A stretch of 14,367 nucleotides of DNA, from assembly GCA_027053075.1 (NCBI GenBank), contig JALUEE010000050.1:1-14367 (forward strand), in the 5' to 3' direction. Every line of letters starts with the position of its first letter. The stretch's first letter is position 1. Source of the stretch: a candidate division WOR-3 bacterium. GTDB taxonomy: Bacteria > Hydrothermota > Hydrothermia > B15-G9 > WFZT01. Positions 3,204 to 14,367 of the stretch are shown here, one piece after another. Made by a program: the position numbers and the translations under genes. Under the pieces are notes generated by a model. That model did no database searches, had not been told where the DNA came from, and saw nothing but the letters and a program-made list of their open reading frames with translations.

Positions 3204-3241
3204 TCCCTACCCCACGCAAAGCGCGGGGGAGGGTGACGGGT
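3204..3241. repeat. REP-like palindrome that is the target of MITE copy A
   Basis: CCCTACCCCACGC-AAA-GCGCGGGGGAGGG. Its tail resumes after the MITE (GGGGGTATTCCGCTTGAAA), matching the uninterrupted copy at 11429-11503. Confidence 0.7.
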
Positions 3242-3457
3242 CTGACGTCACCCACGAATTTCTGGAAAATAACACCTCATCCCTTACCACGACTACAAAA
3301 AGGTGTACTACGCTCAATATTTGAACACTCTCTTTATACGGTATAAACGAATATATCCTTCCGGTAAAAGTTGTTGATTTAGTGCGAAAAATTGAATTTC
3401 CCGCCCAGATTGCGTTGTATAAATATACATGAAAAGCAAAAACATGGGTGATGTCAG
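3242..3457 (+). mobile_element. MITE copy A (216 bp, non-autonomous)
   Basis: Terminal inverted repeats CTGACGTCACCCACG / CATGGGTGATGTCAG. 10-bp direct repeat GGTGACGGGT at 3232-3241 and 3458-3467. Reverse complement of 13976-14191 with 2 mismatches by manual comparison. Confidence 0.92.
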
Positions 3458-3706
3458 GGTGACGGGTGGGGGTATTCCGCTTGAAATTTTAGAAGATTCA
3501 ATACATAAAACTTTTCATCGCAAGTATTTCTGCTCGGGAGAAGAAGATTTGGAAGAGATATTTGGCTCTAAGAAATCCTCACATAAATCTTCCCCTTTGA
3601 GCCAATTTTCACCAGTTTCAACGAGTTACTCCAATAAATCCCGTGATTTTGAGAATTAGTATCATTTAAAAATAGGATTTTAGTCTAATTGTTTTTTATA
3701 AAATAT

Positions 3707-3735
3707 TTGACATTATTAATTTAATTACTTAAAAT
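3707..3735 (+). promoter_or_regulatory. Sigma70-type promoter of the arsR-psr operon (likely leaderless or near-leaderless mRNA)
   Basis: TTGACA (3707-3712), 17 nt spacer, TAAAAT (3730-3735). ATG is 9 nt after the -10 element and has no SD. Confidence 0.75.
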
Positions 3736-3744
3736 TTTTGTACT

Positions 3745-4083
3745 ATGGATAAAGAGACTTATCTCAACGAATTGACACACCTACAGGCGGAATTGTGCAA
3801 GGCATTCGTTAACCCTGTGAGAATTGCCATTATAAAGGTTTTATCTGATGGAGAGGAATCAGTTTCTGAGATAGCCTCAAAAGTGGGTGTTCCCATCCAG
3901 AATATTTCACAACACGTGAAGATCCTAAAAGATGCAGGAATTGTCGGGATGAGGCGTGATGGCCACAAAATTTACTATTCACTTGAAGACAAAAGAATTG
4001 TGGAAATCTGCGACTTGATGAAAGATATCCTCATCGAAATTATGAGGAAGAAAGCCAGTATCTTTCATAAGAATATTGAATAG
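3745..4083 (+). CDS. ArsR/SmtB family transcriptional regulator
   Basis: KAFVNPVRIAII..L..GE.SVSEIA..VG....NISQHVKILKDAGIV..RRDG..IYYSL winged-HTH pattern. Two Cys, C18 and C89. Confidence 0.92.
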   Translation: MDKETYLNELTHLQAELCKAFVNPVRIAIIKVLSDGEESVSEIASKVGVPIQNISQHVKILKDAGIVGMRRDGHKIYYSLEDKRIVEICDLMKDILIEIMRKKASIFHKNIE

Positions 4084-4094
4084 GAGGTTTTTTT

Positions 4095-6446
4095 ATGAGT
4101 AATGGGAGGTTAACTCGTAGACAATTTTTGAAAGGAACTGCCCTTGTGGCAGGTACGACCATCCTCCCTACCGGTCTCGTGAGGGCACAGCGCCGGCCCA
4201 CTACCTGGCACGGCAGGGAGCGTGTAACGGAAATTCCCTCTACCTGTGAGATGTGCTTCTGGAGATGTGGAATAATCGGTGAAGTGAAAGATGGAAGACT
4301 GGTGAAGATCAAAGGAAATCCACTTCATCCAAACAACCGTGGAAAAATATGCGCACGTGGTAACGCGGGGCTCAAGACTCTCTACGATCCAGATAGATTG
4401 AAATACCCGCTCATGAGAGTGGGGAAACGCGGTGAAGCCAAGTGGAGAAGGGTTTCATGGAATGAAGCGCTCGATTACATGGTCGATAAACTGAAAAACA
4501 TAAAATCCAAATACGGGCCCGAGGCAATTGCCATGTTCCCCCACGGAGTTTCGTCAAGGCTGCTGAAATCCGTATTTGCCAGCTGGGGAGTTGTTAACTT
4601 TGCCGTTGCATCCTTCAACCACTGTAAAGGGCCAAGAGACGTGGGATTTAAGCTCACTTTTGGCACATCACCTGGCTCTCCTGAACGGCTTGACCTACCC
4701 AATGCGAGCATGATTGTGCTTATAGGCTCACATCTTGGTGAAAATATTCACACAGGGCAGGTGAGAGAATTTGCCGAAGCTATTGGAAGAGGTGCAAAGA
4801 TTGTTGTTGTAGACCCCAGATTCTCCACAGCCGCATCCAAGGCACACTGGTGGCTACCAATAAGGCCAGGGTCTGATATTGCTTTGCTTCTTGCCTGGAT
4901 TAACGTTCTCATTGAAAAAGACCTCTACGATAAAGAATTCGTCAACCGATATACATACGGATTTGAGGAACTTAAAAAGGCAATAAAGCCTTACACGCCG
5001 GAATGGGCAGAAAAAGTCACAGACATCCCGGCCTCAACCATCAGAGAAATCGCTGTTGAGATGGGAATTAGGAAACCGTCTGTCCTTGTCCATCCCGGAC
5101 GACATACGGTGTGGTACGGAAACGATGTTCAGAGATCAAGAGCGATAGCTATTCTGGTTGCACTCCTTGGTTCATGGGGAAAGCCGGGAGGCTATTTTCT
5201 CCCGACCCCTCTTAAAAAATCCAAATGTCCATGCCCTAAACAGGAGAAACCGCCAAAGGATGTTTGTGAGGCCAGTGGCAAAGACATTTATCCATTTCAC
5301 GAGGAAGGTGTGCCATCACAATGTGTGGTAGATGCTACACTAACAGGCAAACCCTATCCGATAAAGGCCTGGATCACCTATGGAACAAACATAATTCAAT
5401 CCATTCCACAGCCCGAGAGGACTATTAAAGCAATTGAAAAACTCGATCTGCTCGTTGCCATCGATATTCTGCCGACCGACCCCTCACTCTACGCCGATGT
5501 TATTCTCCCAGAGGCGACATACCTTGAAAGATATGACCTGCCTTTTGTCGTTTCCAACTGGACTGACCCTTATGTAGCAATTCGTCAGCCTGTTGTAAAA
5601 CCACTATTCCAGTCAAAAGGACCTTTCTGGATTGCCAAAGAAGTATCTAAACGCCTTGGACTCAAAAACTGCTTACCATGCAACAGCGAAGAGGAGATGA
5701 TCGACAAAATCCTTGAACCCTTAAACATTTCACTTGGGGATTTGACCAACAAAGGAGTCCTGAGTTTCCCCGGCAGGCCATATGACACAAGGAATCTCAG
5801 ATTTAGAACCCCAACAGGCAAGATTGAGCTTTATTCAACGAAGCTCGCTGCCAAAGGCTTTAGTCCGATTCCAGTCTTCGAACCAGTTGATGAGCCACCT
5901 AAGGGTTATTTCAGGCTCATTTACGGCCGCTCCCCTGTTCATTCATTCACGAGGACTGTGAATAATGAGTGGCTGGATGAAATTTACCCTGAGAACAGGG
6001 TGTGGCTCAACGAAAAGGCAGCAGAAAAAATGGGCATCAAGGATGGAGACGAGGTCTATCTCGTTAATCAGGACGGTGTCAAAGAAGGTCCGGTAAAGGT
6101 TTTCGTAACACCGGGTATCAGAGATGACTGCGTTTTCATTGTCCACGGATTCGGACAGAAAAATCCCATGATGAGGAGAGCTTACAACAAAGGTATTTCG
6201 GACTCCTTCTTGATGACAAGAATCAAGCCTGATCCAATCGCAGGCTCTACGGGAATGAGGGTGAATTTCGTGAAGATCGAAAAGAATGGCAAGCTCCTTG
6301 AATACACGCCCGAGGGATACGAAGAGCGTCTAAAAGAAATGAAAGCGGCCCATGTGACTCCGACCATAAAGATTCAGAAACCCGCGAATGTCCAGCCCGA
6401 GCAACCTCAGCCACAGGAAGAGGAAGAAGAAGAGGAAGGATGCTAA
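4095..6446 (+). CDS. psrA: Polysulfide/thiosulfate reductase catalytic subunit (PsrA/PhsA-type Mo/W-bisPGD enzyme), Tat-exported
   Basis: Tat motif TRRQFLK; FS0 motif CEMCFWRC-x27-C; YDPDRLKYP; candidate Mo-ligand Cys in SFNHCKGP; HPGRHTVWYG resembles Thermus PsrA; ADVILPEATYLER; SD AGGAGGT. Confidence 0.85.
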   Translation: MSNGRLTRRQFLKGTALVAGTTILPTGLVRAQRRPTTWHGRERVTEIPSTCEMCFWRCGIIGEVKDGRLVKIKGNPLHPNNRGKICARGNAGLKTLYDPDRLKYPLMRVGKRGEAKWRRVSWNEALDYMVDKLKNIKSKYGPEAIAMFPHGVSSRLLKSVFASWGVVNFAVASFNHCKGPRDVGFKLTFGTSPGSPERLDLPNASMIVLIGSHLGENIHTGQVREFAEAIGRGAKIVVVDPRFSTAASKAHWWLPIRPGSDIALLLAWINVLIEKDLYDKEFVNRYTYGFEELKKAIKPYTPEWAEKVTDIPASTIREIAVEMGIRKPSVLVHPGRHTVWYGNDVQRSRAIAILVALLGSWGKPGGYFLPTPLKKSKCPCPKQEKPPKDVCEASGKDIYPFHEEGVPSQCVVDATLTGKPYPIKAWITYGTNIIQSIPQPERTIKAIEKLDLLVAIDILPTDPSLYADVILPEATYLERYDLPFVVSNWTDPYVAIRQPVVKPLFQSKGPFWIAKEVSKRLGLKNCLPCNSEEEMIDKILEPLNISLGDLTNKGVLSFPGRPYDTRNLRFRTPTGKIELYSTKLAAKGFSPIPVFEPVDEPPKGYFRLIYGRSPVHSFTRTVNNEWLDEIYPENRVWLNEKAAEKMGIKDGDEVYLVNQDGVKEGPVKVFVTPGIRDDCVFIVHGFGQKNPMMRRAYNKGISDSFLMTRIKPDPIAGSTGMRVNFVKIEKNGKLLEYTPEGYEERLKEMKAAHVTPTIKIQKPANVQPEQPQPQEEEEEEEGC

Positions 6447-6459
6447 GGAGGATTAGGAA

Positions 6460-7200
6460 ATGACAAAATATGCAATGGTCATAAACGTTGAGAAATGTGT
6501 TGGATGCCATGCCTGTGAACTCGCCTGTAAGGCAGAGTGGGGAGTGGCTGAAAACGAACACAGAACCTGGGTAAAGCCAACCTATCCCCAGTCCCTTGGA
6601 GGAAAAGGATTATTTGATTTAGTCGCTGCTTTTTATGTGGGTCAATGCAATCATTGTGACCATCCTACATGCGTGGAAGCGTGCCCCACTGGGGCAACTT
6701 TTAAACGAGAAGACGGAATCGTGGTAGTCGATTACGACCTTTGCATAGGCTGCGGTTACTGCGTGGAGGCATGCCCCTATGGTGCACGTTACATTCATCC
6801 TACTCTCAAAAAAGTGGATAAATGTGACTTCTGCGCACCAAGACTTGAAAAGGGCCTCGAGCCTGCATGTGTCGAGACCTGTATAACTGGTGCCAAGGTC
6901 TTTGGTGACCTCGAAGACCCCACAAGTGAAGTTTACAAGCTGGTTTATGAGGAGGGTGCGCGCGGTATAACTTCAGAAGAGGTTAATATTGGCCCCAACG
7001 TCTATTACATCGGAGACGAGAAAAAAGTTGACCTGATAATCAATAAGTTCCCGCCGAGAAAGCCCAAGCTGCCAACACCTGCTTCAATATGGGAAAAGCT
7101 CTTGAAACCTCTACTTGGACTCGGAGTGGTAGCCTCCTTCCTTGGAGCATCAGTTGCCTACTTCATCCAGCTTTTCAAAGGTGAAGATAAATTTGAATAA
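6460..7200 (+). CDS. psrB: 4x[4Fe-4S] electron-transfer subunit (PsrB/PhsB/NrfC-like) with C-terminal TM helix
   Basis: CVGCHACELAC, CNHCDHPTCVEACP, CIGCGYCVEACP, CDFC..ACVETC. Hydrophobic C-terminus LLGLGVVASFLGASVAYFI. Confidence 0.88.
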   Translation: MTKYAMVINVEKCVGCHACELACKAEWGVAENEHRTWVKPTYPQSLGGKGLFDLVAAFYVGQCNHCDHPTCVEACPTGATFKREDGIVVVDYDLCIGCGYCVEACPYGARYIHPTLKKVDKCDFCAPRLEKGLEPACVETCITGAKVFGDLEDPTSEVYKLVYEEGARGITSEEVNIGPNVYYIGDEKKVDLIINKFPPRKPKLPTPASIWEKLLKPLLGLGVVASFLGASVAYFIQLFKGEDKFE

Positions 7201-7215
7201 AAGGAGTGGAGAAAA

Positions 7216-7986
7216 ATGAGAAAAGAAATCCTTGAAAAATTCTTACCGTTAACATTTGAGGAGAGGGAAGAGCTCAAGAAAAAGAAGATCAAAAAGCACG
7301 ATATCGCCACCATTTATCTCCACTGGTTCAATGCCACAGTATGGTTTATCGAGCTTATAACGGGCTCAGCCCTCATCATTTCAAAATACTACAAGTTCAC
7401 CCCCCACTTCTGGCAAAAATTGTGGATGGAGATCTTTGGCACGCGGGCAAATATGCTGAAATTCCACATCTTCACAGGAGTTCTATGGATAATCGTCCTC
7501 CTTATCTACGCAGTTTTTGGCTACAAAAATTATCTCTGGGGCTACTTCAAAAACATGCTACTCCTCACTAAAGATGACATCCTGTGGGTTTACTACAAAG
7601 GCATGCAGATACTCGGCAAAAAGGTTCAGCTTCCTCCTCAGGGAATTTATAACGGTGGTCAAAAGCTCTACGCGTGGGATGTTGCCATTGGCACAATTCT
7701 TATAGCCATTACTGGTCCCATTATGGCATTTCACCTTGGAAGTGTCACTCTCGTTAGATGGGCAATAGCTGTCCACTTCCTCGCAGTTGGGCTTGTTCTC
7801 ATGGGACTTTTCGTTCACATCTACATGGCAGCCTTCATGCCCGAGGAACGCCAGTCCTTCTTCTCCATGTTCACCGGGTATGTAAACGAGCTCTATGCCT
7901 ACGAACACCACTACAAGTGGTGGAGAGAGATGGTCAAAGAGCGTGAAAAATGGCTCGAAGAGTATAAGAAAGAGATTGAAAAATAA
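7216..7986 (+). CDS. Diheme cytochrome b membrane anchor (FdnI/PhsC-like)
   Basis: Four TM segments with His in YLHWFNA, KFHIFTG, AVHFL and FVHIY. 'PPQGIYNGGQK' and 'SMFTGYV...A.EHH..W' resemble FdnI. Confidence 0.85.
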   Translation: MRKEILEKFLPLTFEEREELKKKKIKKHDIATIYLHWFNATVWFIELITGSALIISKYYKFTPHFWQKLWMEIFGTRANMLKFHIFTGVLWIIVLLIYAVFGYKNYLWGYFKNMLLLTKDDILWVYYKGMQILGKKVQLPPQGIYNGGQKLYAWDVAIGTILIAITGPIMAFHLGSVTLVRWAIAVHFLAVGLVLMGLFVHIYMAAFMPEERQSFFSMFTGYVNELYAYEHHYKWWREMVKEREKWLEEYKKEIEK

Positions 7987-8021
7987 CTTCAAGAGGCATG
8001 AATTTGCCTGGAGGTGATAAT

Positions 8022-8567
8022 ATGAAATGGAAACTGTCTCTCCTTCTCCTCCTCATAGGTGGTGTGGCATTTGCCGGCTATTCTGAGTTTTACAGAAATG
8101 CCGGTGATTTTCTCAACACCATCGGAGGAAATTTCAAATACGAGGTAACTCCAACAGGGCTGAAAGCGATGCTCGCAAGCGGCTCGAACGGTATCCTCAT
8201 TATCGATCTGAGACCTGCATCGCAGTACAAAAAAGGGCACATACCGGGAGCGATAAATATTCCTTACCGTGAACTCTTTTCACCCCAGTACATAAACAAC
8301 CTGCCGAAGGACAAGAAGATCATCATTTACTGCCCCGACGAATCCATATCACCCTACATCCTGGCCCTGCTAAGGGCAGCCGGATACGATGCCTGGCAGC
8401 TCAAGGGAGGCTACAGGGCCTGGCTGCATGGTGGTGCAGTAGCAAAAGCACCTGCCGCACCACCTCAAATCAAGAAGACAGAGAGGAAACAACCTGTAAA
8501 GGTACAGGTGCAGCAGCCGGAAGAAGAACCCGAAGATGAGGGAGAAGGAGAGGAAGAGGGCTGTTAA
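8022..8567 (+). CDS. Exported single-domain rhodanese with acidic EEEGC tail
   Basis: IIDLR...Y.KGHIPGAINIP, IIIYC, LKGGY.AW. Signal peptide MKWKLSLLLLLIGGVAFA. Start set at 8022 after SD GGAGGT. Confidence 0.88.
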   Translation: MKWKLSLLLLLIGGVAFAGYSEFYRNAGDFLNTIGGNFKYEVTPTGLKAMLASGSNGILIIDLRPASQYKKGHIPGAINIPYRELFSPQYINNLPKDKKIIIYCPDESISPYILALLRAAGYDAWQLKGGYRAWLHGGAVAKAPAAPPQIKKTERKQPVKVQVQQPEEEPEDEGEGEEEGC

Positions 8568-8581
8568 AAGGAGGTAAAACC

Positions 8582-9526
8582 ATGCGTAAGCTAAAATATG
8601 TAGCGTTGATTGGTGTTTTCATGGTCGTGTCTCTTGTTAGGGCACAGACCATACCACCAACCCATATAGTCACCACCGAATGGCTCGCAAAGTACATCAA
8701 CAACCCCAACATCGTGCTAATTGATGTTCGCTCGCAGTCAAGGTATCTCAGGGGTCATCTGCCCGGTGCCGTGAATATTGACTGGAAAGACTTCACAGAT
8801 GATAGAAATGGTATTCCAAGATTCCTGCCCACTCCAGCGAGATTTGAGGAGCTAATGCGTTATGCGGGAGTGAATAACAATTCAATTGTGATTGTTTACG
8901 CCAGCACAAAAGGAACACCAAAGCGGGCAAACGACGCCTCACGCGTTCTCTGGACCATGTACTACTTTGGTATGGACAACATTGCCATTCTTGATGGTGG
9001 AATCACAAAGTGGCTTGACGAGGGACGTCCCATCGAGAAAGGACTTGTAATGAAGAAGAGAGGCACATTCAAAATCACAAAGGTAAGAAGAAACGTCCTA
9101 ACAGTATTCGATGACATACTCGTTGCAAGATACACGGGGCTTCAAATCGTTGATATTCGTCCACCCTGGATGTATATGGGAGAAACAAAAGATGCAAAAG
9201 CTGCAAGGTACGGGCATATTCCCGGTGCTTACAACTACTTTATCGGCAAGATATACAGGAAAGTTGGACATGCCTACTGCTTCCCGACAAAAGATGCGGC
9301 CCTGAAGCTTGCCCAGAAGGTTGGTCTGGACCTCAATAAGCCTATGGCAGTTTACTGTAATGCAGGCCACTGCGGGGCAGGTGGATGGATTATCCTGAAG
9401 TTTATTGCAGGTGCGAAAGACGTTTCGGTTTATGACGGCTCACTCTATGAATACACGAGGATGCCCGTAAATATGAAGCTTGGACCTGCAAGAGGAACAC
9501 TCTGGGAGATTGATAGATTGAAATAA
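8582..9526 (+). CDS. Exported tandem-domain rhodanese/sulfurtransferase (SseA/YnjE-like)
   Basis: IVTTEWL, LIDVR, GHLPGAVNIDW, ILDGG..KW, GHIPGA, active-site VYCNAGHC, VYDGSL.EY. Signal peptide ending VRA. Confidence 0.9.
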   Translation: MRKLKYVALIGVFMVVSLVRAQTIPPTHIVTTEWLAKYINNPNIVLIDVRSQSRYLRGHLPGAVNIDWKDFTDDRNGIPRFLPTPARFEELMRYAGVNNNSIVIVYASTKGTPKRANDASRVLWTMYYFGMDNIAILDGGITKWLDEGRPIEKGLVMKKRGTFKITKVRRNVLTVFDDILVARYTGLQIVDIRPPWMYMGETKDAKAARYGHIPGAYNYFIGKIYRKVGHAYCFPTKDAALKLAQKVGLDLNKPMAVYCNAGHCGAGGWIILKFIAGAKDVSVYDGSLYEYTRMPVNMKLGPARGTLWEIDRLK

Positions 9527-9533
9527 AAGGCCA

Positions 9534-9578
9534 GGGTGGGAGGGGGCTTCGCCCAAAGGGCGAAGCCCCCTCCCACCC
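9534..9578. other. Perfect 21-bp intergenic hairpin (3-nt loop)
   Basis: GGGTGGGAGGGGGCTTCGCCC-AAA-GGGCGAAGCCCCCTCCCACCC. No U-tract; followed by the SD of the next gene. Confidence 0.85.
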
Positions 9579-9607
9579 CGAGAAACCTTTAAAAGGAGGT
9601 AAAAGCC

Positions 9608-10048
9608 ATGAGGTTACACAACAAACTAATTGCAATAGCAATGCTGGGATTCCTTGTGACCGGCCTTAACGCACAGGTGAAATCTCCAAAGAAGCTCGCA
9701 GAAGAGTACTGGCCATCTGTCCACTGGGTGACTCCACAGCAAGCCTACAAGATGATGAAGACCACCCCAAACCTGGTGGTGATCGATATAAGAGAGAGTG
9801 GTGAATACATGCTCGGTCACCTACCAGGCGCCATATTCATTCCACGTGGATTTCTCGAATTCAGGATCGGATTCATTACCAAGGACGCAAATAGGCCGAT
9901 AATTGTGTACTGCCGTAGTGGTCACAGAGCAACTTTCGCGTACGAGCAACTGGTAAGAATGGGCTATAAAAAGGTCTACAACTTGAAGGGTGGGTTCCTG
10001 GGCTGGAAGAAGGCCGGACTGCCCATAAGCAGAAAGCCCAACGGCTGA
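9608..10048 (+). CDS. Exported single-domain rhodanese (PspE/Sud-like)
   Basis: VIDIRE..EY..GHLPGA, VYCRSGHRA, VYNLKGGF.GW...GLP. Signal peptide ending LNA. SD AAGGAGGT. Confidence 0.92.
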   Translation: MRLHNKLIAIAMLGFLVTGLNAQVKSPKKLAEEYWPSVHWVTPQQAYKMMKTTPNLVVIDIRESGEYMLGHLPGAIFIPRGFLEFRIGFITKDANRPIIVYCRSGHRATFAYEQLVRMGYKKVYNLKGGFLGWKKAGLPISRKPNG

Positions 10049-10054
10049 ATTGGA

Positions 10055-10099
10055 GTTGGGGGTGGGGTGGGCGCCGAAGGCGCCCACCCCACCCCCAAC
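10055..10099. other. Perfect 21-bp intergenic hairpin (3-nt loop)
   Basis: GTTGGGGGTGGGGTGGGCGCC-GAA-GGCGCCCACCCCACCCCCAAC. No U-tract. Confidence 0.85.
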
Positions 10100-10120
10100 C
10101 ACGGAAAGGAGGTTATTCCT

Positions 10121-10636
10121 ATGTTCGATGAAGAAAAAAATCTGAATCCTTACATCGGAGGACTTTTGCTTGGCCTCGTTTTACTCGTTACTTTCGTCAT
10201 TTTTGGCCGTGGTCTCGGCGCTTCCGGGGCCGTGGATAGATTCTCCGCATTTATCATCAGTATTTTCGCTCCTAATTGGATTAAGGCCCATCCATACTGG
10301 CATAAATACTATGTTCATGGCCACACACCGCTAAATAACTTTCTCGTATTTCTCCTGATCGGTGTTTTCTTTGGAGGGCTCGTCACAGCCTATTTTCAGG
10401 GCAAGCTAAAGATAAAAGTTCAGCACGGTCCAAGAATTTCCAAAACTCAGAGGTATGTTATCGCATTCATAGGCGGAATGATTCTTGCTATAGCTACAAG
10501 GTTCTCCCGCGGCTGTACCAGCGGTCAGGCATTGACAGGTGGTGCTGAGCTTGCCGTTGGCAGCTGGATTTTCATGATTGCATTTTTCATTTCGGGACCC
10601 ATTACAGCTCTCTTTATTAAAAAATTCTGGAGGTAG
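10121..10636 (+). CDS. YeeE/YedE family sulfur transporter component (first)
   Basis: NPYIGG, GLGASG, 'R...GCTSGQALTG' Cys motif, multiple TMs. Start placed at ATG 10121 after SD AAGGAGG, not GTG 10067. Confidence 0.88.
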   Translation: MFDEEKNLNPYIGGLLLGLVLLVTFVIFGRGLGASGAVDRFSAFIISIFAPNWIKAHPYWHKYYVHGHTPLNNFLVFLLIGVFFGGLVTAYFQGKLKIKVQHGPRISKTQRYVIAFIGGMILAIATRFSRGCTSGQALTGGAELAVGSWIFMIAFFISGPITALFIKKFWR

Positions 10637-10641
10637 AAGAA

Positions 10642-11223
10642 ATGGCACCAATTCTAAAATTTTATCACGTACCGTTTTTCTGGTATTTTGTTCTGACCCT
10701 CATAACAGGCTTCTTTTTCGGGATTACCCTCGCAATTTCAGGATTCTACGACACTAAAAAACTCACCGGAGTGTTCTTTTTTGATGACATGGCCGTTCTC
10801 AAAGTCATGTTCTCTGCCATTGTAGTCGCAAGTATAGGCCTCTACCTTCTCGTGGACCTCGGAACACTTGATTTAACAAGGCTTTACATTCCCAAAACAT
10901 ACTGGATTTCGCAGCTTGTAGGAGGCTTGCTATTTGGTATTGGGTTTATGCTTTCCGGATACTGTCCGGGAACAAGCTTTGTATCCCTTGCCTATGGCAG
11001 TATAGATGCACTTTTCGTAATCCTTGGGATGATCTTTGGGATGTGGGTGTTTGGATTTGGATACAAACTCTGGAAGGGGCTTTATCTGGCTGGCTATCTT
11101 GGGAGAATTACCCTTGATAGATTGTTTGGAATGAACCGATGGATTATCATCGGGGCTGTGTTTGTTATCGCAGTCTTCGCTTTTATCCAGATTGAAATTT
11201 TTGAGCAAAAGAAGAAATCCTGA
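10642..11223 (+). CDS. YeeE/YedE family sulfur transporter component (second)
   Basis: G..FG..L..SG, 'VLKVMFSAI', 'GGLLFGIGF.LSGYCPGT' Cys motif, multiple TMs. Confidence 0.88.
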   Translation: MAPILKFYHVPFFWYFVLTLITGFFFGITLAISGFYDTKKLTGVFFFDDMAVLKVMFSAIVVASIGLYLLVDLGTLDLTRLYIPKTYWISQLVGGLLFGIGFMLSGYCPGTSFVSLAYGSIDALFVILGMIFGMWVFGFGYKLWKGLYLAGYLGRITLDRLFGMNRWIIIGAVFVIAVFAFIQIEIFEQKKKS

Positions 11224-11428: not shown

Positions 11429-11503
11429 TGCCCTTTCCCACTTGCTTTGCAAGTGGGAAAGGGCATCGGGAGGGGGTATTCCGCTTGAAAATTAGAAATT
11501 CAA
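11429..11503. repeat. REP-like palindrome plus tail (uninterrupted equivalent of the MITE A target)
   Basis: 17-bp stem TGCCCTTTCCCACTTGC-TTT-GCAAGTGGGAAAGGGCA, then GGGGGTATTCCGCTTGAAA shared with 3468-3486. Confidence 0.75.
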
Positions 11504-11610: not shown

Positions 11611-11652
11611 TCCTCCCCCCACGCACTTCGTGCGTGGGGGGAGGATGGGAGG
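11611..11652. repeat. REP-like palindrome that is the target of MITE copy B
   Basis: 16-bp stem TCCTCCCCCCACGCAC-TTC-GTGCGTGGGGGGAGGA. Confidence 0.8.
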
Positions 11653-11867
11653 CTGATATCACCCATGTTTTTGCTTGTCATGTATACTTATACAATACAA
11701 TCTGGGCGAGAAATTCAATTTTTCGCAGTAAATCAACAATTTTACCTGAAGGATATATTCGTTTATACCGCATAAAGAGAGTGTTCAAATATTGAGCGTA
11801 GTACACCTTTTTGAAGACCTGGCAAGGGATAAGGTGTTATTATCCAGAAATTCGTGGGTGACGTCAG
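11653..11867 (-). mobile_element. MITE copy B (215 bp, diverged)
   Basis: Ends CTGATATCACCCATG / CGTGGGTGACGTCAG. 10-bp direct repeat GGATGGGAGG at 11643-11652 and 11868-11877. About 16 substitutions and 1 deletion versus copy C by manual count. Confidence 0.9.
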
Positions 11868-11952
11868 GGATGGGAGGGGGGAATTTCCGAACAAGCTCAT
11901 TTTATCTTTCAATTTATCCTGGAGATTTGGAATATTTAGCCCTTCTCTTATA

Positions 11953-11986
11953 TCCTTTCCCCGCAGGTATTTATGCGGGGAGAGGA
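11953..11986. repeat. REP-like palindrome
   Basis: TCCTTTCCCCGCA-8nt-TGCGGGGAGAGGA, near-identical to 2827-2861. Confidence 0.7.
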
Positions 11987-12043
11987 ATCGTTCGCGTTTG
12001 GCTGGATTAAATTTCCCTCGTAAAGGGTTTAAACTAATGCCCT

Positions 12044-13831
12044 ATGTGGGCTATTCTCCTCGCAGTTTCTATAATACTCAGTCTGTGGGTCTACAGGGGT
12101 GCATTTAAGCGAGCCTGGTATCTTGTGTTACTACGTACACTATCGCTATTCCTGCTACTTTTGGTAGCCCTCTCCCCCATCTTCCATAGAAAAAAGGTCG
12201 TGCCCACGGAGGTTGATGTCCTTATCGATAAATCGGGAAGCATGGGCTACCCCGATAAGGCCAAATTTCTAAAAGCTACCCTGGAAGACCTTAAAAATCT
12301 CTCATACAGCGGAATTTCTCTGAGTTTTTTCAGTTTTGACACAACTTTTGATCGAGGCATAAATTTGGACTTTGGGGGCAAAACAAACATTGGGCTTGCC
12401 ATAGATTCGGCAAAATCAAGGTTTATTGTGCTCCTCTCAGACGGTTTGAATAATCGGGGAAGTTTTCCGTCCGTTAAGGGCAAGAAAGTATTGGCCTTTC
12501 CTCCACCAACCTCAAAGGCTCTCATAAAGGAATTTTCCTTCAAGCCTGTGATCGTCGAGGGTGTATCAGATACAATAAGGGTAACCTCCGCCGTCACAGG
12601 GAAAATCGAAATTTATGAAGGTGGTAAGGCTATTTATTCCGGGAAGGTAGCAAAAAATAAACCAGCCGAAATTATTTTAAATCTGAAAACCCCAGGATTT
12701 CATACCCTGCAGATGAAGATTAATGGGAAGATCGCCCGAAAATTTACCGTCAGGGTTATCAAAAGGGGGAAGCGTGTCTTGATTTACGCTTCACATCCTG
12801 ACGTGAACATCAGATTCTTGAGGATGTATATCGAATATGCAGGGAACATTTCGCCAGATTTTGTTGTAAAAACAAAAAAAGGTACACGAGAATACAGGCC
12901 AGACACGGTAATAGACCTAAAAAGTTTTGAGCCTTCCGGGTACGATTTCTACATAATGATCGACCCCTCAATTGACATGATTAAGCCCCTGGAACATGGG
13001 GAAAAAGGACTTGTAATCTTCACAAGGACTCCAGTGGTATTGCCCGAGCTACTTGGCGGTCAGTACCTGCCTTCAAAAATGACCGGGGAACTTTATCCAC
13101 ACTGGAGGGACACCATACTTGCCCCGGTAGGCTATATTTGGGTTCTCAATCGCTATCCACCTGAATCAGAGACCCCGGTCTTTATTAAAGTTGCTAATAG
13201 AAACGTGCCACTTTTGTTTCTAACCGGGCGCCTTGCCTTCCTCATGTCTGGAGACTTCTTCAAGGAGGCACTTTTTGACTTTAAAACCTTTTCGAGGATA
13301 CTCGACCTCGTGTTCTCAAGGCTGATCCCTGAAGGTAGCTTTTTTGTTGAAACACCCTCGAGGCAGTTTGAAAAGGGAGAAAAAATCCCTCTGGTAGCAT
13401 ATGCTTTTGATAAGTTTGGCAACGCTGTGGATACTCTATTCCCATTTGTCAAAATCGGGGATAGAAAGTATCCAATGAATTACGTCGGAAATGGAAAGTA
13501 TGTAACTTCGATAGCAGCAAAAGATACTGGAAAGGTCAAGGCAAGTGTAGTTTTTAAAGGCCCCGGGGGATTTGTTAAAGAAGAGAGGATAACCTTTAGG
13601 ATTCGCTCGATCAGCGAGGAGAAACCCACACCAGAGGTTGACCTGGCATTTTTAAGGTCAATTGGAGAAGTCGTGACATCAAAGAAGGCACTTCACCAAT
13701 TCCTGAAATCTATCAAGCCTACCACTGTAAGAGAGAAAATCAATCTCAGGGACTACCTAGCCCTTATCCTGCTTGCATTTGCACTTCTTGGAGTTGAATG
13801 GTTCCTTCGAAGGTCAAACGGGGTTGTGTAA
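12044..13831 (+). CDS. Membrane-anchored vWA-domain protein
   Basis: Two N-terminal hydrophobic segments; MIDAS-like IDKSGSM...TNIG.AI...LLSDG; C-terminal TM ending 'LLGVEWFLRR'. Confidence 0.8.
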   Translation: MWAILLAVSIILSLWVYRGAFKRAWYLVLLRTLSLFLLLLVALSPIFHRKKVVPTEVDVLIDKSGSMGYPDKAKFLKATLEDLKNLSYSGISLSFFSFDTTFDRGINLDFGGKTNIGLAIDSAKSRFIVLLSDGLNNRGSFPSVKGKKVLAFPPPTSKALIKEFSFKPVIVEGVSDTIRVTSAVTGKIEIYEGGKAIYSGKVAKNKPAEIILNLKTPGFHTLQMKINGKIARKFTVRVIKRGKRVLIYASHPDVNIRFLRMYIEYAGNISPDFVVKTKKGTREYRPDTVIDLKSFEPSGYDFYIMIDPSIDMIKPLEHGEKGLVIFTRTPVVLPELLGGQYLPSKMTGELYPHWRDTILAPVGYIWVLNRYPPESETPVFIKVANRNVPLLFLTGRLAFLMSGDFFKEALFDFKTFSRILDLVFSRLIPEGSFFVETPSRQFEKGEKIPLVAYAFDKFGNAVDTLFPFVKIGDRKYPMNYVGNGKYVTSIAAKDTGKVKASVVFKGPGGFVKEERITFRIRSISEEKPTPEVDLAFLRSIGEVVTSKKALHQFLKSIKPTTVREKINLRDYLALILLAFALLGVEWFLRRSNGVV

Positions 13832-13975
13832 TTCTTATATCAATATTGATTGAATATTGACCTTATGAATATCCAGTCAATTACACAAATATTTCCTGTG
13901 AGGAGTTCGCGTTTAAGTTTAATCGAAGGACGATTTAAAATAGTGTTGGAAATATCCCCATTCTCCCCTTAACCC

Positions 13976-14191
13976 CTGACATCACCCATGTTTTTGCTTT
14001 TCATGTATATTTATACAACGCAATCTGGGCGGGAAATTCAATTTTTCGCACTAAATCAACAATTTTTACCGGAAGGATATATTCGTTTATACCGTATAAA
14101 GAGAGTGTTCAAATATTGAGCGTAGTACACCTTTTTGTAGTTGTGGTAAGGGATGAGGTGTTATTTTCCAGAAATTCGTGGGTGACGTCAG
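13976..14191 (-). mobile_element. MITE copy C (216 bp)
   Basis: Ends CTGACATCACCCATG / CGTGGGTGACGTCAG. 10-bp direct repeat CCCTTAACCC at 13966-13975 and 14192-14201. Confidence 0.92.
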
Positions 14192-14367
14192 CCCTTAACC
14201 CCTCCTCCTCCTATAATGTTTGTTGTTATTTATTATGGTGATCACTCACAATATAGAGAAAAACTTTAGAGGAGGTGGAATGAGTGGTTTTTAGATCTTT
14301 CCCCTCCTTGGGGCTTGACCCCGGTAGGAAGATTGGTCCCTCCACCTGGGGTATAAGCCTGGATTGT

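Follow-up and report, generated by a model that had tools for sequence, protein, structure and literature searches.

The window analysed here (14,367 nt) is the entire contig JALUEE010000050.1 of a 2.44-Mb, 95% complete genome of a candidate division WOR-3 bacterium (G000), and contains an operon of nine + strand open reading frames (ORFs) at 3745-11223, separated by gaps of 5-81 nt. By Pfam and NCBIfam, these genes encode an ArsR regulator, a molybdenum-bis(pyranopterin guanine dinucleotide) (Mo-bisPGD) catalytic subunit, PsrA, a subunit with four [4Fe-4S] clusters and a cytochrome b, followed by three rhodaneses and a pair of YeeE/YedE proteins of half length. We read them, with a probability of roughly 0.55, as a Phs-type molybdenum reductase that would act with the rhodaneses and a two-piece YeeE to reduce sulfane sulfur outside the membrane, the Cys tails of PsrA and rhodanese 1 serving as persulfide arms. 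The layout is a member of an already published cluster type, and the arm on the catalytic subunit is what is new: no published description of a terminal Gly-Cys on PsrA was found by a search that left subscription journals mostly outside and supplements unread.

PsrA (783 amino acids, aa; 4095..6446, + strand) ends in an arm of residues 753-783 (6351..6446, + strand), with a Pro/Gln linker, seven Glu and a terminal Gly-Cys783 (...QPEQPQPQEEEEEEEGC). Rhodanese 1 shows an arm of similar build at residues 139-181 (8436..8567, + strand), with a Pro/Lys linker, an acidic run and a terminal Gly-Cys181 (...EPEDEGEGEEEGC). These are the only two Gly-Cys ends among the 3018 ORFs of at least 120 aa in the genome. 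Since chance alone would give about one such end in the whole genome (0.8 among the 1646 ORFs of at least 200 aa), the weight lies in the presence of both in one operon and in their conservation. Both tails are kept in the four operons of the sister genomes of the same genus (G001, G002, G004 and G005). Among the 120 best PsrA homologues, 23 show a C-terminal extension of at least 30 aa, and 22 of these, all with 46-69 aa, end in Glu-Gly-Cys; the sole extension without this end has 30 aa, and none of the 97 short forms contains it. The linker is not conserved among the homologues, and the codons for Gly, Cys (TGC or TGT) and stop (TAA, TAG or TGA) vary, so the conservation is at the protein level and the tail itself looks to be under selection. 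A selenocysteine at the tip was considered and rejected, because all three stop codons follow Gly-Cys, and no selenocysteine variant of the tail was seen among the ORF ends listed. In the AlphaFold model the core of PsrA is well modelled and the last 14 residues (770-783) show a predicted local distance difference test (pLDDT) score below 50 and are predicted to be disordered. Swinging arms have a conserved Cys that ends a flexible segment, which is what the sequence predicts here, and the tail, on which the earlier note is silent, is most likely a swinging arm that would carry a persulfide. Tailed PsrAs occur in at least four named phyla, their records including ones titled Ignavibacteriota, Calditrichota, Chlorobiota and Myxococcota, and also in Melioribacteraceae records; in the class of G061, five of the 30 loci read contain the PsrA tail.

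The same tip is present on other proteins of related loci, which were surveyed in 80 loci of other lineages and in 79 metagenome loci, the latter partly from the same organisms; the counts include related genomes and are not independent. In the 80 loci the Gly-Cys tip ends 13 of 70 complete PsrAs and 27 of 43 rhodaneses, together with all 20 ExtJ-like, all seven ExtH-like and all six small anchor-plus-linker proteins, fractions that are biased upwards because the references for ExtJ, ExtH and the anchor had been chosen among Gly-Cys-ending proteins of the same loci. It is found in none of 79 PsrB and none of 69 cytochrome b sequences, in one of 65 YeeE halves, in one of 30 ArsR proteins and, as background, in one of 1005 other long ORFs. 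The metagenome loci show it in seven of 63 PsrA ORFs, 15 of 22 rhodaneses, 13 of 13 ExtJ and three of three anchor proteins, with a background of 1/521. Tailed single-domain rhodaneses from outside the genus, where the loop is readable, carry Gly, Ser or Asp in place of the catalytic Cys, and many of them therefore possess no Cys other than that of the tail; rhodanese 1 of the operon retains Cys104, in an acidic loop. A conserved terminal Cys of exported proteins can make inter-chain disulfides, and this, with the occurrence of one tip on several proteins of one operon, would fit a structural role, in which the Cys, without carrying sulfur, is a periplasmic disulfide staple or assembly tag joining PsrA, rhodanese 1 and their partners. 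This is very unlikely, since the tip substitutes for the catalytic Cys in many rhodaneses, proteins built of a membrane anchor, a linker and a Glu-Gly-Cys end suit a mobile carrier better, and the sulfidic periplasm of an anaerobe would tend to reduce disulfides.

The anchor-plus-arm proteins have 92-133 aa (L028:5318-5596, L027:6953-7252, L033:6429-6821 and L047:13363-13764) and contain nothing beyond a membrane anchor, the motif GYP-x-GG, a linker of low complexity and DEGC at the end. They gave no Pfam match (one protein tested) and no informative NCBIfam match, and the best Atlas score, 0.76, was unusable. In locus L098, an ArsR (6187-6600) and a YeeE-half fusion protein (1609-2853) both end in a PRKGGGC tail; this ArsR, a cytoplasmic regulator, departs from the pattern of exported proteins. 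A second operon type, in G069 and G066, combines a PsrA lacking the tail with a rhodanese that ends in DEGC, and its NrfD anchor is confirmed in G069.

The three rhodaneses of the operon show predicted Sec signals, judged by inspection of the n, h and c regions and by a hydropathy scan: the cleavage sites by inspection are AFA/G, VRA/Q and LNA/Q, and the scan flagged the h-region in two of the three. Rhodanese 1 (181 aa; 8022..8567, + strand) has the atypical acidic loop C104-PDESIS and the long tail. Rhodanese 2 (8582..9526, + strand) is an accessory tandem-domain protein of the SseA/TST type with the loop C259-NAGHC, and rhodanese 3 (9608..10048, + strand) is a Sud-like single-domain protein with the canonical loop C102-RSGHR. 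From these loops, rhodaneses 2 and 3 look catalytically intact. The presence of three rhodaneses, which the earlier note had held to be unusual, is not a conserved trait: rhodanese 2 is found in one of five other genomes of the genus (G004), the same operon lacks it in G001, G002 and G005, and srrE and srrF are already two rhodaneses of one reductase operon (PMC12481199). The third rhodanese is an add-on, present in one of the four sister operons.

Downstream of the rhodaneses the operon contains YeeE in two halves. Half 1 (171 aa; 10121..10636, + strand) is PmpA-like, corresponds to the C-terminal half of PF04143 (174-306) and carries Cys132 in GCTSG; half 2 (193 aa; 10642..11223, + strand) is PmpB-like, corresponds to the N-terminal half (4-150) and carries Cys108 in GYCPG. 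PmpA and PmpB are described as a split, half-length YeeE pair with one conserved Cys each (PMC11582611), and the operon pair shows the same two halves with one Cys each, but is longer than the PmpAB proteins of about 130 aa. An in-frame TGA stands at the Cys position of GY-C-PG in half 2 of L030, L034, L038, L064, L066, L086, L100 and L102, and in eight of the 79 metagenome loci. It is probably a selenocysteine codon, judging from its position, and YeeE selenoproteins are listed in PMC9312934.

The sulfur relay of rhodaneses and YeeE proposed by the earlier note is upheld, in that both are kept with the reductase across many phyla in the two surveys. One alternative is that the arms serve YeeE and not the molybdenum site: the reductase would make or trim sulfane sulfur, and the Gly-Cys tips would feed import through YeeE for assimilation, signalling or a cytoplasmic sink of the TusA, DsrE or Hdr-like kind. 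Co-occurrence was counted in the 52 loci that reach 1.5 kb or more upstream and 4.5 kb or more downstream: 31 contain YeeE and a Gly-Cys protein, one contains YeeE alone, 10 contain ExtJ/ExtH-type Gly-Cys proteins alone and 10 contain neither. Accordingly 31 of the 32 well-covered YeeE loci also hold a Gly-Cys protein, and YeeE is present in all 11 tailed-PsrA loci with at least 3 kb downstream. A fusion of cytochrome b with a YeeE half occurs in 29 of the 67 complete loci of the 80-locus set (e.g. L034:11007-12470 and L028:3156-4637), which points to a putative reductase-channel complex, and the L098 fusion joins a YeeE half to a rhodanese-like region with the Gly-Cys tail. In G001 (L149:979-4501, contig C57) a cluster of DsrE, TusA, MvhD and an FAD oxidoreductase, which we take to be HdrA-like, lies adjacent to and divergent from arsR, and in G005 a TusA gene lies beside arsR (C37:7006-7215); TusA thus adjoins the operon in two sister genomes. 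On the other side, the 10 loci with ExtJ/ExtH-type proteins alone show no YeeE in the stretch read, and the genome of the operon has no match to TusA (PF01206), which would be the TusA-like YeeD partner of YeeE, nor to DsrE or MvhD. Feeding of YeeE alone is unlikely, and it shares the persulfide arm with the preferred reading, from which it differs only in the acceptor. A cytoplasmic sink formed by a rhodanese-reductase was also rejected, as the only other rhodanese domain in the genome is that of ThiI.

The position of PsrA in the Psr/Phs clade, claimed by the earlier note, is borne out by sequence, fold and tree. PsrA shows PF00384, PF04879 and PF01568, and its match to Thermus PsrA (2vpw) has an E-value of 1.4e-221 (741 bits), against 2e-65 (224 bits) for the next structure; the fold match gives a template modelling (TM) score of 0.83 with 47% identity in the fold alignment. 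The FS0 cysteines (Cys51, Cys54, Cys58 and Cys86) and the molybdenum ligand Cys177 are invariant in 52 rows and align with 2vpw. A twin-arginine translocation (Tat) motif, TRRQFL, lies at residues 7-12 and marks PsrA for export by its sequence, with a PF10518 match (E 4.5e-4, 20.5 bits) slightly below the 22.7 cut-off. The FastTree phylogeny, built on 103 rows with tails removed and without 28 of the 57 locus rows that have no tail, contains FdhF-like sequences as only outgroups, no named ArrA, TtrA or SrrA and several long branches, so that its deep order is unsure. In it, PsrA belongs to a 57-row clade (support 100) nested in a clade with the Thermus-type row (99), the three PhsA equivalogs form a separate neighbouring branch, and tailed PsrAs lie in two groups (three changes). 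A close PsrA homologue is present in five of 272 genomes of the phylum, and the confinement of all five to the source genus suggests that the operon was acquired by the ancestor of the genus. Four extra cysteines (378, 380, 391 and 410) lie at residues 378-410, in or near the loop equivalent to the internal GGC of Thermus PsrA; they are present in the genus homologues and in P0071 and absent from most relatives.

A metalloid oxyanion (arsenate, selenite or tellurite) as the true substrate, with thiols and rhodaneses handling arsenic or selenium species, has to be weighed at this point, because SrrA lies in the same clade and has two rhodanese genes in its operon (PMC12481199, PMC10100899). Arsenate induced the psr/phsA of Melioribacter roseus, which may lie outside the subclade (PMC5492636). 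Records of Melioribacteraceae are among those with tailed PsrAs. ExtH and ExtJ are named after selenite and tellurite reduction, and the regulator belongs to the ArsR family. The NCBIfam scores of PsrA, however, are 528 bits for PhsA, 276 for DmsA, 166 for ArrA and 105 for TtrA, and the window contains no ars genes. The operon ArsR also lacks the alpha-3 Cys motif that we take to mark arsenite sensors. With the Geobacter ext cluster now linked to elemental sulfur (S0) respiration (PMC13510729), a metalloid substrate is improbable.

The membrane anchor calls for one correction to the Psr/Phs-type ABC set of the earlier note. Subunit B (6460..7200, + strand) is a PsrB/PhsB-type, FdnH-like protein with 16 Cys for four [4Fe-4S] clusters and a C-terminal transmembrane helix at 218-236. 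Subunit C (7216..7986, + strand) is a di-haem cytochrome b of the FdnI/PhsC type (PF01292, TIGR01583), with His36, His84, His187 and His201 and an NGGQ motif at 146-149. It matches 1kqf_C (E 7.8e-11), His84, His187 and His201 aligning with FdnI His57, His155 and His169; His36 fits FdnI His18 by position, and these FdnI residues serve as haem ligands. The hydropathy scan shows three helices above threshold. There was no NrfD match, and as a PF01292 cytochrome b with four His the anchor is not the eight-helix, cofactor-free NrfD-type PsrC. Because a haem b-type anchor is the published feature that separates Phs from Psr (PMC12949373), the complex is of the Phs type. By sequence its electron wire is complete, running from the di-haem cytochrome b through the four clusters of B and the one cluster of A to the Cys-ligated molybdenum.

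The FdnH/FdnI architecture conserves energy in the oxidative direction. On this architecture of B and C the complex could run oxidatively, as formate dehydrogenase-N does, oxidising periplasmic sulfide or protein-bound sulfane sulfur, reducing quinone on the cytoplasmic side and conserving energy. Those members of the clade that have been characterised act as reductases (PMC10100899), and no dsrA was found in the genome, which makes this direction the least probable of the alternatives.

The preferred reading, reduction of sulfane sulfur with persulfide arms, would proceed as follows. Quinol, probably reduced by the HybOABC-type hydrogenase encoded in the genome, would be oxidised at the haem on the cytoplasmic side, and electrons would pass outwards to sulfane sulfur (polysulfide or thiosulfate) on the outer side of the cytoplasmic membrane. 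Salmonella Phs is said, by the title of a 2012 work by Stoffels, to be powered by proton motive force, and the outward electron step would likely consume this force in the same manner. The system would then be an electron sink or a scavenging device and not a main energy source. In PMC9324843, Salmonella Phs is called an adjunct to fermentation. From polysulfide or thiosulfate, rhodaneses 2 and 3 would take sulfur and load the tail Cys; the PsrA arm, which at 31 residues could by estimate span the subunit, would hand the persulfide to the molybdenum site or take sulfur off it, and the arm of rhodanese 1 would shuttle sulfur among the rhodaneses, PsrA and the Cys of YeeE. When the PsrA core (33-740) and rhodanese 1 (19-181) were modelled as a complex, the score was 0.03 and the mark 0.32, and the result was counted neither way.

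Several points weigh against this reading. The persulfide on the tails is a prediction, and AlphaFold leaves the tip unplaced. The tail is a minority trait, the Gly-Cys end being present in one of 124 full-length PsrA/PhsA representatives of 50% clusters, and 10 of the 52 loci contain neither YeeE nor any Gly-Cys protein in the stretch read; since most PsrA/PhsA proteins also lack the arm, the enzyme can do without it. The ExtJ, ExtH and anchor fractions are inflated as described above, and the related genomes counted are not independent of each other. In the Psr/Phs clade the substrate is not readable from sequence (PMC13047784, PMC12949373), Caldithrix abyssi showed no respiration of S0 or thiosulfate although it carries a homologous cluster (PMC5317091), and there is the arsenate induction in M. 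roseus (PMC5492636). With a Phs-type anchor and these data from C. abyssi and Melioribacter, the respiration assumed by the earlier note is unproven. Its description of the set as self-contained is overstated: the operon has no gene for a TorD-family chaperone (one lies on another contig) and no TusA/YeeD partner was found in the 95% complete genome.

A bolder proposal, which we offer tentatively as possible rather than probable, is that this Phs/Psr lineage fused its catalytic subunit to a portable periplasmic sulfur-carrier tag, linker-[DE]-E-G-C, and that the true substrate would be the persulfide on the enzyme's own arm. The rhodaneses, ExtJ/ExtH and membrane-anchored arms with the same tip would then link, in a single covalent relay, the reductase and YeeE, which in many relatives are fused into one membrane complex. 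This touches on how polysulfide or thiosulfate reaches a buried molybdenum site and on the cargo of the adjacent YeeE channels. Cys783 is a single-residue handle on whether such enzymes act on tethered persulfides, like Sox and Dsr, and the Gly-Cys tip is a sequence marker for relay parts missed by annotation, such as the 90-130-aa anchor-plus-arm proteins. Should the arm prove dispensable, the operon adds no more than an ordinary member to the described cluster type.

The nine co-oriented, tightly spaced genes of the earlier note are confirmed, and so are its strong Shine-Dalgarno sequences on the structural genes, present in eight of eight with pairing of -9.2 to -16.6 kcal/mol; arsR shows no such pairing (+0.8 kcal/mol). 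From this arrangement we infer that the nine genes are co-transcribed. The proposed single promoter, a sigma70-type TTGACA-17-TAAAAT (3707..3735, + strand) with 11 of 12 consensus matches, is not supported by the scan alone, in which it is the top of 22 promoter-like sites in the window with 23.4 expected by chance, a count that proves nothing; it is supported by its conservation, since each of the five genus genomes with the operon has TTGACA-17-TA(A/T)AAT ahead of arsR. The start of arsR is 9-10 nt beyond the -10 box (9 nt in the window), and therefore arsR is nearly leaderless. Its product (112 aa; 3745..4083, + strand) is an ArsR/SmtB repressor by Pfam and NCBIfam with a conserved Cys pair of its own, Cys18 and Cys89, present in the five genus sequences and outside the BigR/SqrR positions, where a Cys of helix alpha-2 pairs with one of the C-terminal alpha-5: the alpha-2 Cys of BigR aligns with Lys31, and the score on the BigR/SqrR model is 56 bits against a cut-off of 155. 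ArsR would likely repress the operon until Cys18 and Cys89 are modified.

Two perfect 21-bp GC-rich hairpins lie within the operon (9534..9578 and 10055..10099). They were rejected as terminators because they show no U-run on the + strand, the genome contains 151 perfect hairpins with arms of at least 16 bp, and sister operons have short gaps of 14-18 nt after rhodanese 1. They belong to the REP-like intergenic hairpins of the window, which also lie at 338-370, 2815-2862, 11429-11465, 11611-11645 and 11940-11987. A non-coding, MITE-like repeat of about 220 bp has three copies in the window (3225-3459, 11653-11867 and 13974-14208) and 24 copies, 88-99% alike, on 18 contigs of the genome; it was not seen in six sister-genome stretches tested. 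A composite transposon with the inverted copies at 3225-3459 and 11653-11867 as ends was rejected, since the repeats belong to this dispersed family and were not seen in those sister stretches. The flanks of the operon (620-2763 and 12044-13831) encode a type I glutamine synthetase, a helical-backbone solute-binding protein that shows no evident signal peptide, and a membrane protein of 595 aa without family match. Flanking genes vary among the sister genomes, G004 excepted.

Among known systems, the phsABC-pmpAB-sulfurtransferase clusters of Ca. Electryonea clarkiae and Caldithrix abyssi show the same gene set, with a Tat-exported PhsA/PsrA and a split YeeE, but contain one sulfurtransferase against three rhodaneses here; the available part of PMC9324843 mentions no tail, and its authors leave the function of the cluster open. 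The srrABCDEF operon of Bacillus selenitireducens shares the catalytic clade and the rhodanese genes in the reductase operon, and differs in its chaperone gene srrD, 43-kDa anchor and selenite substrate, with no YeeE named in the available part of PMC12481199; the present operon has no TorD-family gene. Homologues of Geobacter ExtH and ExtJ (NF040901, NF040942), with Gly-Cys ends, lie beside tail-less PsrAs in related loci and are absent from the studied operon; in Geobacter they occur with the multihaem reductase MccSep (PMC13510729, PMC5877670). Thermus thermophilus PsrABC (2vpw-2vpz) has the closest solved catalytic subunit, with aligned FS0 cysteines and Cys-ligand region, and differs in its haem-free NrfD-type PsrC (PMC12949373), whereas the operon has a di-haem cytochrome b and a transmembrane helix on B; the match stops at residue 731, ahead of the tail. 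Salmonella-type PhsABC (NF012032) is the best NCBIfam family for subunit A and has the haem b-type anchor, and its membrane subunit with two haems b corresponds to subunit C; the score of 528 bits is below the 694 equivalog cut-off, the equivalogs form a separate branch, and the operon anchor is FdnI-like and not the five-helix PhsC. Rhodanese 3 is a homologue of Wolinella Sud (1qxn, E 1.4e-13), with two other structures scoring better. SoxY and DsrC carry swinging arms that end in a flexible Gly-Cys. The operon tails are alike in this end but are acidic and, in PsrA, fused to a molybdoenzyme, and the likeness is not claimed as homology. In MES, a DMSO-reductase-family enzyme, the next-to-last residue (Cys1135 of 1136) is an essential Cys with a proposed persulfide relay to the Mo/W site (PMC9516567). 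MES is biosynthetic and fed by a fused cysteine desulfurase, and its Cys follows the desulfurase domain and not the molybdenum module (PMC9516567); it is the nearest tested precedent for the proposed PsrA arm.

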